NCBI RefSeq assembly: GCF_024502345.1
Contig: NZ_JALDNN010000001.1
DNA length: 64,000 nt
Source of the DNA: Escherichia coli
Lineage (GTDB): Bacteria > Pseudomonadota > Gammaproteobacteria > Enterobacterales > Enterobacteriaceae
Direction: 5' to 3' (one strand)
Part shown: positions 20,190-27,939 of the stretch, piece by piece
Position numbering within the stretch: the first letter of the stretch is position 1
Layout of the letters: each line of letters opens with the position of its first letter
Notes under the pieces: model-generated
Databases searched by the model: none
What the model saw: only the letters and a program-made list of their open reading frames with translations
What the model was told of the DNA's origin: nothing
Position numbers and translations under genes: made by a program

Positions 20190-20232
20190 ACGGTCCCCTC
20201 GCCCCTTTGGGGAGAGGGTTAGGGTGAGGGGA
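20190..20232. repeat. GC-rich hairpin repeat, copy 1 (resembles E. coli boxC-class intergenic repeats)
   Basis: ACGGTCCCCTCGCCCCTTTGGGGAGAGGGTTAGGGTGAGGGGA; identical 43-mer recurs at 27897..27939. Confidence 0.8.
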
Positions 20233-20301
20233 GCAGGGAAGCGCCAGTGGGAATTACCCTTTGCTCGCATTGTCGAATAAATCACTTCGTCATCACTCTG
20301 A

Positions 20302-20327
20302 AACCGGGGAAACCCGGTTTTTTTATC
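20302..20327 (+). terminator. Rho-independent terminator downstream of trpS
   Basis: ACCGGGG-aaa-CCCGGT followed by TTTTTTTAT. Confidence 0.75.
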
Positions 20328-20392
20328 CTCATTTGCAATAATCCGAAAAAATGTGAAGCGCCTCGCCGTTTCCACATCTCACAGTTGCCACT

Positions 20393-20414
20393 TATCTTCA
20401 TTTTAATGAAGATA
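20393..20414. promoter_or_regulatory. Inverted repeat TATCTTCAT-N4-ATGAAGATA upstream of yhfZ (candidate operator)
   Basis: Perfect 9-bp arms, about 30 bp upstream of the yhfZ start codon in an AT-rich promoter-like region. Confidence 0.4.
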
Positions 20415-20442
20415 TAAACATTCATTTTATTGAAAATATATT

Positions 20443-21348
20443 ATGCGTCGAACGTTTATCAAAAAAGAAGGCGTCGTTATCACGACGCTGGCCCGTTATT
20501 TGTTGGGTGAAAAATGCGGTAATAGGTTGAAAACCATAGATGAGCTGGCAACTGAATGCCGTTCATCCGTTGGCCTGACGCAGGCCGCGTTGAAAACGCT
20601 GGAATCAAGCGGAGCGATACGGATTGAACGCCGTGGGCGCAATGGCAGTTATCTGGTCGAGATGGATAACAAAGCATTGCTGAGTCATGTGGATATCAAC
20701 AACGTGGTATGTGCGATGCCTTTGCCCTATACCCGCTTGTACGAAGGTTTAGCGAGCGGATTGAAAGCCCAGTTTGATGGCATTCCTTTTTACTATGCGC
20801 ATATGCGCGGCGCGGATATTCGCGTGGAGTGTTTACTTAACGGCGTGTATGACATGGCGGTGGTTTCCCGACTGGCGGCGGAAAGTTATCTCACGCAAAA
20901 AGGGTTTTGCCTCGCGCTGGAGTTGGGGCCGCACACCTACGTTGGCGAGCACCAGTTGATTTGCCGTAAAGGCGAGTCCGCAAACGTGAAGCGCGTGGGG
21001 CTGGATAACCGTTCGGCGGATCAGAAAATCATGACCGATGTTTTTTTTGGCGGTAGTGATGTGGAACGAGTCGATCTCTCTTATCACGAGAGTTTACAAC
21101 GCATTGTTAAAGGCGATGTCGATGCGGTGATCTGGAACGTGGTGGCGGAAAACGAACTGACCATGCTGGGATTAGAGGCGACGCCGCTCACAGACGATCC
21201 GCGATTTTTACAGGCCACCGAAGCCGTGGTCCTGACGCGAGTCGATGATTACCCAATGCAACAACTGCTGCGTGCCGTTGTAGATAAACACGCCCTGCTT
21301 GCCCATCAACAACGGGTGGTGAGTGGGGAACAGGAACCCAGTTATTAA
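20443..21348 (+). CDS. yhfZ: Putative transcriptional regulator YhfZ (N-terminal winged-HTH, C-terminal ligand-binding domain)
   Basis: 301-aa ORF; HTH-like segment TIDELATECRSSVGLTQAALKTLESSGAIRIERRGRNGSYLV. Confidence 0.85.
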   Translation: MRRTFIKKEGVVITTLARYLLGEKCGNRLKTIDELATECRSSVGLTQAALKTLESSGAIRIERRGRNGSYLVEMDNKALLSHVDINNVVCAMPLPYTRLYEGLASGLKAQFDGIPFYYAHMRGADIRVECLLNGVYDMAVVSRLAAESYLTQKGFCLALELGPHTYVGEHQLICRKGESANVKRVGLDNRSADQKIMTDVFFGGSDVERVDLSYHESLQRIVKGDVDAVIWNVVAENELTMLGLEATPLTDDPRFLQATEAVVLTRVDDYPMQQLLRAVVDKHALLAHQQRVVSGEQEPSY

Positions 21349-21364
21349 ACGAAAGGCATCTGAT

Positions 21365-25085: not shown

Positions 25086-25439
25086 ATGAAAAAGATTGGC
25101 GTTGCAGGCTTACAGCGTGAGCAGATTAAAAAAACCATTGAAGCGACGGCTCCTGGCAGTTTTGAAGTTTTCATTCACAACGACATGGAAGCGGCAATGA
25201 AAGTGAAATCCGGGCAACTGGATTACTACATCGGTGCGTGTAATACCGGTGCGGGCGCGGCATTGTCGATTGCCATCGCGGTGATTGGCTATAACAAAAG
25301 TTGCACCATTGCCAAACCAGGCATTAAAGCGAAAGACGAGCATATCGCCAAAATGATCGCTGAAGGAAAAGTGGCGTTTGGCCTTTCCGTTGAGCACGTC
25401 GAACACGCGATTCCGATGCTGATTAACCATCTGAAATAA
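25086..25439 (+). CDS. yhfU: Uncharacterised protein YhfU
   Basis: ORF 25047..25439; start at ATG 25086 (MKKIGVAGLQREQIKK...), 117 aa. Confidence 0.8.
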   Translation: MKKIGVAGLQREQIKKTIEATAPGSFEVFIHNDMEAAMKVKSGQLDYYIGACNTGAGAALSIAIAVIGYNKSCTIAKPGIKAKDEHIAKMIAEGKVAFGLSVEHVEHAIPMLINHLK

Positions 25440-25450
25440 AAGGCACGACT

Positions 25451-26755
25451 ATGGATCTGTATATTCAGATTATCGTGGTGGCGTGCCTGACGGGTATGAC
25501 ATCGCTTCTGGCGCATCGCTCGGCGGCTGTTTTTCATGACGGCATCCGCCCGATCCTGCCGCAACTGATTGAAGGCTATATGAACCGTCGCGAGGCGGGG
25601 AGTATCGCTTTTGGTCTGAGCATTGGTTTTGTGGCCTCGGTGGGGATCTCTTTTACCCTGAAAACCGGGCTGCTCAACGCATGGTTACTCTTTCTTCCTA
25701 CCGATATCCTCGGCGTACTGGCGATAAACAGCCTGATGGCGTTTGGTCTTGGCGCTATCTGGGGCGTGTTGATCCTTACTTGCCTGTTGCCAGTAAACCA
25801 GCTGCTGACCGCGCTGCCGGTGGATGTATTAGGTAGCCTCGGGGAATTAAGCTCGCCGGTGGTTTCTGCTTTTGCACTGTTCCCGCTGGTGGCGATTTTC
25901 TACCAGTTTGGCTGGAAGCAAAGTCTGGTCGCCGCCGTGGTTGTTCTGATGACCCGTGTGGTAGTCGTGCGCTATTTCCCACATCTTAACCCTGAATCCA
26001 TCGAAATCTTTATTGGCATGGTGATGCTGCTGGGGATCGCGATAACTCACGACCTGCGTCATCGTGATGAAAATGATATTGATGCCAGCGGGCTTTCGGT
26101 GTTTGAAGAACGCACGTCGCGGATTATCAAAAACTTACCCTATATCGCCATCGTGGGAGCATTGATTGCCGCCGTTGCCAGCATGAAGATTTTCGCCGGC
26201 AGTGAAGTGTCGATCTTCACTCTGGAGAAAGCGTACTCCGCAGGCGTAACGCCGGAACAATCGCAAACGCTGATCAACCAGGCGGCACTGGCAGAATTTA
26301 TGCGCGGGCTGGGTTTTGTACCGTTGATTGCCACCACCGCCTTAGCAACGGGTGTGTATGCAGTTGCGGGCTTTACCTTTGTTTATGCGGTGGGCTATCT
26401 CTCGCCGAATCCGATGGTTGCAGCGGTATTAGGCGCAGTGGTTATTTCGGCGGAAGTCTTGCTGCTTCGTTCGATCGGCAAATGGCTGGGACGCTACCCG
26501 TCGGTGCGTAATGCGTCGGATAACATCCGTAACGCCATGAATATGCTGATGGAAGTGGCGCTGCTGGTCGGTTCGATTTTCGCAGCAATTAAGATGGCGG
26601 GTTATACCGGATTCTCTATCGCGGTTGCCATTTACTTCCTCAACGAATCCCTGGGCCGTCCGGTACAGAAAATGGCGGCACCGGTCGTGGCAGTAATGAT
26701 CACCGGTATTCTGCTGAATGTTCTTTACTGGCTTGGCCTGTTCGTTCCGGCTTAA
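25451..26755 (+). CDS. yhfT: Polytopic inner-membrane protein YhfT (putative permease)
   Basis: 434-aa ORF, strongly hydrophobic with about 10-12 predicted TM segments. Confidence 0.88.
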   Translation: MDLYIQIIVVACLTGMTSLLAHRSAAVFHDGIRPILPQLIEGYMNRREAGSIAFGLSIGFVASVGISFTLKTGLLNAWLLFLPTDILGVLAINSLMAFGLGAIWGVLILTCLLPVNQLLTALPVDVLGSLGELSSPVVSAFALFPLVAIFYQFGWKQSLVAAVVVLMTRVVVVRYFPHLNPESIEIFIGMVMLLGIAITHDLRHRDENDIDASGLSVFEERTSRIIKNLPYIAIVGALIAAVASMKIFAGSEVSIFTLEKAYSAGVTPEQSQTLINQAALAEFMRGLGFVPLIATTALATGVYAVAGFTFVYAVGYLSPNPMVAAVLGAVVISAEVLLLRSIGKWLGRYPSVRNASDNIRNAMNMLMEVALLVGSIFAAIKMAGYTGFSIAVAIYFLNESLGRPVQKMAAPVVAVMITGILLNVLYWLGLFVPA

Positions 26756-26766
26756 GGAAGGCACCT

Positions 26767-27852
26767 ATGAAGACGTTTCCTCTGCAAAGCCTGACGATTA
26801 TTGAGGCGCAGCAAAAGCAGTTTGCGCTGGTGGATAGCATTTGTCGCCATTTCCCCGGCAGCGAGTTTCTTACTGGCGGTGATTTAGGCTTAACGCCAGG
26901 ACTGAATCAACCGCGCGTTACCCAGCGTGTGGAACAGGTGCTGGCTGATGCATTTCACGCACAGGCTGCGGCGCTGGTGCAGGGCGCGGGGACTGGCGCG
27001 ATTCGCGCCGGGCTGGCTGCTTTGCTCAAACCGGGGCAGCGTCTTCTGGTGCATGACGCGCCTGTTTACCCGACGACACGGGTTATTATTGAGCAGATGG
27101 GGCTGACGCTTATTACTGTTGATTTCAATGACCTGTCGGCACTGAAGCAGGTCGTCGACGAGCAACAACCGGATGCGGCGCTGGTGCAGCATACGCGCCA
27201 GCAGCCGCAGGACAGCTACGTGCTGGCAGATGTGCTGGCAACGTTGCGCGCGGCAGGTGTTCCAGCGTTAACCGATGACAACTATGCGGTGATGAAGGTG
27301 GCGCGAATCGGCTGTGAATGCGGCGCGAATGTCTCGACATTTTCCTGCTTCAAGCTATTTGGGCCAGAGGGTGTTGGTGCAGTGGTCGGCGATGCTGATG
27401 TTATCAACCGTATTCGCGCCACGCTTTACTCCGGCGGTAGCCAGATCCAGGGCGCACAGGCGCTGGAAGTATTGCGTGGGCTGGTGTTCGCGCCAGTGAT
27501 GCACGCGGTGCAGGCAGGGGTATCTGAACGGTTGCTGGCTTTGCTTAACGGTGGTGCGGTGCCGGAAGTGAAAAGCGCCGTCATTGCCAATGCGCAGTCG
27601 AAGGTGTTGATTGTCGAGTTTCATCAGCCGATTGCCGCCAGGGTGCTGGAAGAGGCGCAAAAGCGCGGTGCCTTGCCTTACCCAGTGGGTGCAGAGTCGA
27701 AATATGAAATCCCGCCGCTTTTTTATCGACTTTCCGGAACGTTCCGCCAGGCGAATCCGCAACTCGAACATTGTGCGATTCGCATTAACCCGAATCGCAG
27801 CGGTGAAGAGACGGTGCTGCGGATTTTGCGTGAGAGTATTGCGAGTATTTAA
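26767..27852 (+). CDS. yhfS: Uncharacterised PLP-dependent-transferase-like protein YhfS
   Basis: 361-aa ORF MKTFPLQSLTIIEAQQKQFALVDS... Confidence 0.85.
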   Translation: MKTFPLQSLTIIEAQQKQFALVDSICRHFPGSEFLTGGDLGLTPGLNQPRVTQRVEQVLADAFHAQAAALVQGAGTGAIRAGLAALLKPGQRLLVHDAPVYPTTRVIIEQMGLTLITVDFNDLSALKQVVDEQQPDAALVQHTRQQPQDSYVLADVLATLRAAGVPALTDDNYAVMKVARIGCECGANVSTFSCFKLFGPEGVGAVVGDADVINRIRATLYSGGSQIQGAQALEVLRGLVFAPVMHAVQAGVSERLLALLNGGAVPEVKSAVIANAQSKVLIVEFHQPIAARVLEEAQKRGALPYPVGAESKYEIPPLFYRLSGTFRQANPQLEHCAIRINPNRSGEETVLRILRESIASI

Positions 27853-27896
27853 TGCTGGATAGCACCGTTCGGAAATCAAGCTAAATTCCGCACTGA

Positions 27897-27939
27897 ACGG
27901 TCCCCTCGCCCCTTTGGGGAGAGGGTTAGGGTGAGGGGA
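27897..27939. repeat. GC-rich hairpin repeat, copy 2 (identical 43-mer to 20190..20232)
   Basis: ACGGTCCCCTCGCCCCTTTGGGGAGAGGGTTAGGGTGAGGGGA in the same orientation as copy 1. Confidence 0.8.

Follow-up and report, generated by a model that had tools for sequence, protein, structure and literature searches.

In the 64,000-nucleotide stretch of Escherichia coli DNA analysed here (contig NZ_JALDNN010000001.1, hereafter the window), the yhf cluster lies between trpS and frlR and is flanked by two copies of the 43-mer ACGGTCCCCTCGCCCCTTTGGGGAGAGGGTTAGGGTGAGGGGA, which occupy positions 20190-20232 (copy 1) and 27897-27939 (copy 2), both on the + strand, in direct orientation and with 0 mismatches between them. 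The pair had been reported in a preliminary description of this DNA, and its identity, orientation and position are confirmed by exact matching as well as by a repeat finder, which returns a start-to-start spacing of 7,707 bp. Copy 1 begins 15 nt past the trpS stop codon, upstream of a hairpin at 20300-20321 and of yhfZ, and copy 2 begins 44 nt past the yhfS stop codon, where it is followed by a REP element and then by the convergent frlR. Both copies are intergenic according to the annotation and the list of open reading frames (ORFs), and the homology of the two sites is restricted to the 43 nt, with flanks that are unlike on both sides. The repeats are members of a family known earlier as BoxC or PIT (potential intrastrand triplex), for which Holder et al. 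(2015, Nucleic Acids Research; PMC4666352) use the name TMECO, and exchange between these two members appears to have deleted the yhf cluster repeatedly. The features of the locus are as follows.

20190..20232, + strand: copy 1, BoxC/TMECO type A, in the trpS-yhfZ spacer (exact match; 36-nt core in Table 1 of PMC4666352)
27897..27939, + strand: copy 2, BoxC/TMECO type A, in the yhfS-frlR spacer (exact match; aligned to K-12 and to deletion strain 132)
20233..27939, equivalently 20190-27896, + strand: segment lost in the deletion, 7,707 bp, comprising the spacer tail, the terminator, yhfZ-yhfS and one repeat copy
19170..20174, + strand: trpS, left anchor gene
20233..20290, + strand: tail specific to the BoxC-type spacer allele (alignment of the first ~35 nt)
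20300..20328, + strand: terminator-like hairpin with T-run, downstream of trpS (conserved in all spacer alleles, lost in the deletion)
20443..27852, + strand: yhf cluster (ORF list, K-12 annotation and RefSeq annotation of the matching region)
20443-21348, + strand: yhfZ
about 21365-21727, + strand: yhfY
21811-22974, + strand: yhfX
22974-24200, + strand: yhfW
24197-25075, + strand: php
about 25086-25439, + strand: yhfU
25451-26755, + strand: yhfT
26767-27852, + strand: yhfS
27947..28006, + strand: REP element beside copy 2, GCCGGATGCG...CTTATCCGGCCTAC (retained in the deletion allele)
28012..28743, - strand: frlR, right anchor gene, end of the frl insertion

Loss of the yhf cluster at a single-copy junction

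The preliminary description had suggested that the repeats could drive excision of the module between them, and such excision does occur naturally. A synthetic junction of 1,044 nt, in which window positions 19690-20232 are joined to 27940-28440, is covered to at least 80% in 342 of 5,426 complete E. coli genomes (341 of them at E <= 1e-300), and it aligns over 1-1044 as a single ungapped block in each of the deleted genomes listed. Strain 132, for example, matches 2,794 bp of a 10,501-bp query, which corresponds to 10,501 minus 7,707, and its sequence runs from the trpS stop codon through the left flank, one 43-mer and the right flank to the REP element, such that trpS and frlR are adjacent. 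When a junction-independent query is used, with the trpS 3' end joined directly to the frlR 3' end and the spacer omitted, trpS is located within ~1 kb of frlR in exactly 342 genomes; whole-cluster loss by any other junction was not found among frl-positive genomes. In the 342 deleted genomes, only BoxC and REP separate trpS from the convergent frlR, and the sole terminator-like hairpin downstream of trpS is gone.

The parental state, with two exact direct copies, is present in the window and in strains NCTC9064, RM13752, RM6927 and 2013C-3492; strains 99E2750 and GZM7 also carry both copies, with 1-3 substitutions in copy 2. Counting gene adjacencies across 5,425 genomes distinguishes three states of the locus, namely the cluster with frlR (2,957 genomes), a state without frlR (2,126) and trpS beside frlR (342). 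Both copies occur together in 7 of 30 records of an even-step sample, from which we estimate that ~1,250 genomes have this arrangement. The preliminary description had named invariance of the cluster across strains among the findings that would refute it; the interval between the repeats is in fact variable, with the cluster lost in 342 of the 5,426 genomes.

The direction of the change is given by synteny outside E. coli. A protein-guided scan for YhfW, with one genome per species, reveals the order gph-trpS-yhfZ...yhfS in E. albertii, E. whittamii, three other Escherichia, many Citrobacter, Klebsiella spallanzanii, Buttiauxella, Trabulsiella and Cedecea. Since trpS-yhf synteny is held in other Escherichia species and in at least six other genera, the yhf cluster stood beside trpS ancestrally, and the empty site arose by deletion. 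All genes annotated in the segment have regulatory, metabolic or transport functions, with no integrase or mobility gene in or beside it, and a tRNA scan of 18000-30000 returned none.

Recurrence of the deletion

To compare the surroundings of the junction, 2.4 kb on the left and 2.9 kb on the right were aligned for nine deleted genomes, eight intact bracketed genomes (including the window) and two genomes with the BoxC spacer but without frl. Deleted strain F2_407_2_2 differs from intact strain RM6927 at 0 of 2,400 positions on the left and at 1 of 2,900 on the right, and the two strains have all six flanking protein accessions in common, whereas F2_407_2_2 shows 30-79 differences from every other deleted strain sampled. 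In addition, directly after the repeat, F2_407_2_2 carries the single-nucleotide polymorphism (SNP) block AACA at positions 5, 22, 23 and 29, in contrast to GGTG in all other deleted strains sampled. Because F2_407_2_2 is near-identical to an intact strain and its junction-proximal SNP block is unlike that of the other deleted strains, we regard at least two independent deletions as established on the strength of these alignments.

Four or more independent events are likely on the same kind of comparison. The deleted strain ET350 has another right flank, which is near that of intact RM13752 and 2013C-3492, and the left flanks of deleted strains show up to 60 differences in 2.4 kb. The deleted genomes outside the O55:H7/O157:H7 lineage, ~30 in number, are divided by identity and bit score among about eight further classes, and the classes as a whole suggest about ten junction haplotypes. 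A left-flank search with LH50-c returned TB06052, which is without frl, and 23S01245-7, which is intact with substitutions in both repeat copies and whose right flank has 10-20 differences from the group formed by A16, 4FM, LH50-c, PapRG and A30. The substitutions in the copies of intact 23S01245-7, 99E2750 and GZM7 imply a shorter uninterrupted homology in these strains.

The locus of the window itself looks mosaic by sequence comparison, because its left flank is near intact strains, with 6-7 differences in 2.4 kb from several of them, and its right flank is distant (39-61 differences in 2.9 kb from all sampled strains) with the GGTG block typical of deleted strains. Over window positions 19000-29500, the best match among complete RefSeq E. 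coli genomes reaches <=98.7%. Pseudogenes are seen within the cluster, with frameshifts of yhfW in 99E2750 and of yhfY in 2013C-3492 and an internal stop in the yhfS of 23S01245-7. Next to the cluster, an internal stop interrupts frlD in both O55:H7 CB9615 and strain 132, two strains with the same flanking haplotype. Such pseudogenes of the cluster and its neighbours fit weak selection on these genes.

Identity of the repeats as BoxC elements

Over its positions 7-42, the 43-mer exactly matches nos. 7, 11 and 15 in Table 1 of PMC4666352 (CCCTCGCCCCTTTGGGGAGAGGGTTAGGGTGAGGGG, designated 'type A mm'), which lists 23 copies in MG1655. The repeat is composed of a pyrimidine block, CCCCTCGCCCC, a TTT loop, a purine block, GGGGAGAGGG, a TTA loop and a second purine block, GGGTGAGGGG, a layout that fits type A, where the second loop is TTA. 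Alignment with MG1655 identifies copy 2 as the orthologue of TMECO no. 15 (K-12 coordinates 3504857-3504892); copy 1 is without a K-12 orthologue. The suggestion of a boxC-like family in the preliminary description was thus right, with the 36-nt core being that of BoxC/PIT/TMECO type A mm and copy 2 being TMECO no. 15 itself. Like other members of the family, for which PMC4666352 cites the original BoxC descriptions of the 1990s as well as Hoyne et al. 2000 for PIT, the window repeat shares the type A mm core and is intergenic, multi-copy and dispersed. It also resembles REP/BIME elements in being short, G+C-rich, palindromic and intergenic, and a REP adjoins copy 2 while REPs occupy the left site in K-12. 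The sequence and architecture are nevertheless unlike, since the one pyrimidine and two purine blocks of BoxC are absent from REP.

Across complete E. coli genomes, a 66-nt query finds the family in 5,424 of 5,426, with a median of 17 and a maximum of 32 places per genome, and nearly all places are chromosomal (51 of 87,133 are on plasmids). The exact 43-mer, defined by 42 or 43 matching bases, is present in 3,703 genomes at 1-5 places per genome (median 2). At its 5' end, the 43-mer has six bases beyond the core, ACGGTC, which agree with a flank consensus, GCGCWC..WCGGT, that is common to six unrelated K-12 copies, so that the identity over 43 nt reflects conservation of the family. A special kinship of copies 1 and 2, which this identity might have implied, was accordingly dismissed, the extra bases being family-wide consensus and the 43-mer occurring elsewhere as well. 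BoxC units are, moreover, often found as inverted A/B pairs with a conserved spacer. Judged from the common 5' flank consensus and the spacer of the A/B pairs, the BoxC element is larger than the 36-nt 'TMECO'.

Within the 64-kb window, a third copy of the 43-mer is absent at <=3 mismatches, and a scan for the block pattern detected no further degenerate BoxC copies. No match to the 43-mer was obtained in 100 shuffles of the window; shuffles are, however, the wrong null model here, because the pair belongs to a dispersed family. By our own reckoning from ~20 copies in ~5 Mb, an estimated ~0.3 direct BoxC pairs within 8 kb would be expected by chance per genome, and the closeness of the two copies is therefore unremarkable. 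The repeat finder also reports, elsewhere in the window, a 40-nt direct repeat of 95% identity at 50118-50157 and 50961-51000 with a spacing of 843 bp.

Origin of the left and right sites

The left copy is one of several alternatives at its position, as at least three alleles of the trpS-yhfZ spacer occur, which we refer to as short, REP and BoxC-plus-tail. The short form is found in E. coli PCN033, and the spacers of Citrobacter and Klebsiella are similarly short, with neither REP nor BoxC. The REP form is found in K-12, where no BoxC is present between trpS and yhfZ of MG1655 and REP/BIME sequences stand there, as well as in E. albertii, E. whittamii and two other Escherichia genomes. The BoxC-plus-tail form is carried by the window and by Ec1119, and in degenerate form by Escherichia sp. 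E1V33; among the 5,426 E. coli genomes, the BoxC spacer is joined to yhfZ in 1,524. Because the REP form recurs in E. albertii and E. whittamii and a degenerate BoxC form in E1V33, the REP and BoxC spacer alleles look older than E. coli, or else look to have crossed species boundaries. The tail, from 20233 to ~20268, can be aligned to the spacer lying between type A and inverted type B in K-12 BoxC pairs, specifically those at the fepB-side and ygfF-gcvP loci, and for this reason it is probably the remnant of an inverted BoxC partner that has decayed or been lost.

The right copy lies at the edge of the frl insertion and is not part of the yhf cluster. This insertion (frlABCDR together with copy 2 and the REP element) measures 5.25 kb, spans window positions 27853-33104 and replaces 29 nt of the yhfS-yhfL spacer of frl-less E. 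coli; in other Escherichia species, yhfL directly follows yhfS. BoxC is not present at the yhfL-side boundary of the insertion. Copy 2 resides inside a 9-bp inverted repeat, CGCACTGAA / TTCAGTGCG, at 27889-27897 and 27958-27966, which forms the outer stem in the RNA fold, and the degenerate copy 2 of E. coli E69 lies between the inverted repeats CCGCACATT / AATGTGCGG. Such inverted repeats may mean that BoxC landed in an older hairpin, or they may be the ends of an element. The exact bracketing of the yhf operon that the preliminary description emphasised is thus true of this strain, but is overstated as a general property, as the left site is REP in K-12 and in most other Escherichia. Nor is it specific to the operon, given that copy 2 goes with the frl insertion and that the exact 43-mer is found at 1-5 places per genome.

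Folding and signal predictions at the repeats

As RNA, the two sites are predicted to fold into a long G+C-rich hairpin, with energies of -30.7 and -37.9 kcal/mol, which correspond to z = -1.5 and -2.1 relative to composition-matched shuffles. As DNA, the 43-mer forms a hairpin of -10.1 kcal/mol when only Watson-Crick folding is considered, which is no better than shuffles. Terminator and promoter scans detect nothing at either repeat, the nearest terminator-like site being that at 20300-20321, and neither copy 1 nor copy 2 is followed by a U-tract or T-run. Rfam contains no match for the repeat; a sub-threshold hit to naRNA4, which is REP-derived, lies beside copy 2 (30.4 bits), and a hit to Antizyme_FSE has a chance-level E = 0.98. 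Earlier work cited in PMC4666352 observed neither promoter nor terminator activity. The alternative role raised in the preliminary description, that of terminating or transcript-stabilising hairpins at the operon boundaries, is therefore not borne out, with no U-tract, folds no better than shuffles and no terminator activity in the cited work.

Mechanism and alternative explanations

The two 43-mers are ordinary BoxC/PIT/TMECO repeats that in this lineage happen to lie in direct orientation around the ancestral yhfZYXW-php-yhfUTS. Copy 1 represents one of the at least three trpS-yhfZ spacer alleles, and copy 2 arrived downstream of yhfS as part of the frl insertion. In genomes that have both copies, ectopic homologous recombination probably removes 7,707 bp and leaves a hybrid copy in the arrangement trpS-BoxC-REP-frlR, and the deletion has been repeated in nature. 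Homology-directed exchange is indicated because the two-copy direct parent and the one-copy product with untouched outer flanks are both found, and because the same 43 bp is used on different backgrounds. Taken as a whole, a chance direct BoxC pair with recurrent, recombination-mediated deletion of the yhf cluster is very probably the best explanation of the locus.

Repeat-mediated deletion is a textbook process. The likeliest route for the crossover, as judged from general knowledge, is RecA-mediated, because 43 bp exceeds the ~25-bp minimum for efficient RecA-dependent recombination, while slippage-type, RecA-independent deletion drops steeply with distance, such that a spacing of 7.7 kb disfavours replication slippage. 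A repeat that forms hairpins or triplexes may additionally stimulate deletion. From general knowledge of other dispersed repeats (REP/BIME, insertion sequences (IS), rrn and Rhs), the yhf case is familiar in that direct repeats surround a dispensable segment, one hybrid copy is left and the event is recurrent. It differs from IS, rrn and Rhs in that the BoxC homology comprises just 43 bp, near the lower limit for efficient RecA-dependent exchange, and from dispersed repeats more generally in that BoxC can form hairpins or triplexes in vitro.

A number of points weigh against this interpretation, or narrow it. Regarding recurrence, ~310 of 341 deleted genomes, EDL933 among them, belong to O55:H7 or O157:H7 and form a single clonal lineage; with ~310 genomes from one clone complex, the deletion frequency of 6.3% is for the most part a product of database sampling and of one old event. 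A search for relatives of the O157 lineage with a chimeric query, consisting of the O55:H7 right flank and the yhfS end of the window, did not find a near-identical intact relative, and because the best full-length intact match is just 98.8% over 2.5 kb, the O55:H7/O157:H7 event may not be independent of that of the A16-type group. Regarding the products, the reciprocal junction yhfS-BoxC-tail-yhfZ, which would mark a tandem duplication or a reintegrated circle, is found in 0 of 5,426 genomes. Duplication of the cluster between the repeats, which the preliminary description had envisaged alongside excision, thus has no representative; its absence does not argue against the deletion mechanism, because duplications are unstable. 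Regarding the crossover, an identical junction would result from single-strand annealing following a break or from template switching, and since the two copies are identical, the crossover point has no internal marker. Regarding structural stimulation, PMC4666352 reports a triplex that is stable in vitro, and the in vivo footprinting did not reveal a stable one.

The one-copy and two-copy states could in principle be read in the opposite direction, with the empty site being ancestral and a yhf island having integrated Campbell-type, via a circle, at a resident BoxC, thereby creating the direct repeats; insertion through a common 43-bp site would indeed yield the same structure, although nothing else was found in its favour. 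We consider this scarcely credible, as it is contradicted by outgroup synteny, the cluster being next to trpS in Escherichia species and at least six other enterobacterial genera, mostly in genomes without BoxC at either boundary. Moreover, neither integrase nor tRNA is present, a circle or tandem junction occurs in 0 of 5,426 genomes, and copy 2 is part of the frl insertion instead of the cluster. The overall appearance is that of an att-bounded genomic island, with a cluster between perfect direct repeats that is present or absent among strains and one repeat at the empty site, but the yhf segment is distinct in being ancestral and syntenic across genera, without integrase, tRNA or mobility genes, and its repeats come from a ~20-copy family and leave no circular junction. 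If deletion is accepted, it might still have happened once and have spread later between lineages by homologous recombination of the flanks, as one accident and not as a recurrent process. The concentration of deleted genomes in one clone complex and the alike right flanks of A16, 4FM, LH50-c, PapRG and A30 (7-20 differences in 2.9 kb) would be compatible with such a history. It is nonetheless decidedly unlikely, given that F2_407_2_2 essentially equals intact RM6927 on both flanks up to the repeat and has the other SNP block, that the right flank of ET350 resembles those of intact RM13752 and 2013C-3492, and that left flanks of deleted strains are up to 60 positions apart in 2.4 kb.

The remaining alternatives concern the repeats themselves. 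Copies on the + strand would both fall in 3' untranslated regions and have long G+C-rich hairpin folds (-30.7 and -37.9 kcal/mol), as might be expected if they were functional RNA or DNA signals, such as stabilising hairpins, terminators or protein-binding sites, with a position at operon boundaries that is selected. This appears unlikely, however, as the folds are not above composition-matched shuffles (z = -1.5 and -2.1), a T-run follows neither copy, the only nearby terminator-like site is at 20300-20321 and an Rfam match is lacking. Furthermore, the left site is REP in K-12 and most other Escherichia and has neither REP nor BoxC in Citrobacter, Klebsiella and PCN033, and the work cited in PMC4666352 was without promoter or terminator activity and without a link to gene class or orientation. 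Alternatively, BoxC might itself be mobile in the manner of a miniature inverted-repeat transposable element (MITE), with the copies representing independent insertions and the deletions a by-product of transposition. The conserved flanks beyond the 36-nt core, the frequent A/B inverted pairs with conserved spacer, the presence of copy 1 in place of REP elements at the same spot and the inverted repeats on either side of copy 2 in E. coli E69 (CCGCACATT / AATGTGCGG) could be understood in this way. Mobility is nevertheless very improbable as the cause, because a transposase is not associated with the family, a link to mobile elements was not seen by Holder et al. (PMC4666352), and plasmids account for just 51 of 87,133 places. 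In addition, the junction retains exactly one copy together with both original flanks, the pattern that a crossover between copies leaves behind.

Relation to previous work and significance

In the study of Holder et al. (PMC4666352), TMECO elements were statistically associated with variable regions, no link to mobile elements was observed, and TMECO 15 scored 'region missing' in 28 of 56 genomes. The mechanism was left open, and crossover between distant copies was mentioned only as a possibility. The trpS-side copy described here is absent from MG1655 and is hence outside the 23-copy Table 1 of that study, and neither trpS nor yhfZ is named in its main text or in the text of its supplement. 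By contrast to that genome-wide association, the present analysis documents for one locus the parent with two copies, the product with one, the ancestral state and the recurrence. A full-text literature search, the coverage of which leaves out most subscription journals, returned no description of BoxC-mediated loss of the yhf cluster.

The repeat family, its link to variable regions and repeat-mediated deletion are already known, and the yhf case is a well-documented new instance; neither a new kind of element nor a new function is revealed by the yhf deletion. A wider proposal, which we put forward tentatively and consider rather doubtful, would be that BoxC/TMECO elements serve as genome-wide 'deletion handles', where crossover between direct copies is a main cause of the reported hypervariability, structure raises exchange above that of ordinary 43-bp homology, and loss of yhf at the base of O55:H7/O157:H7 is one fixed example.

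For the E. coli lineages concerned, deletion between the two BoxC copies explains the loss of yhfZ-yhfS in O55:H7/O157:H7 and in several unrelated strains. The near-isogenic intact and deleted pair RM6927 and F2_407_2_2 constitutes a natural test bed for recombination between 43-bp structure-forming repeats over 7.7 kb. For the family as a whole, the reported 'instability' of BoxC/TMECO gains a concrete and checkable mechanism at one locus, with all of the states visible in public genomes.

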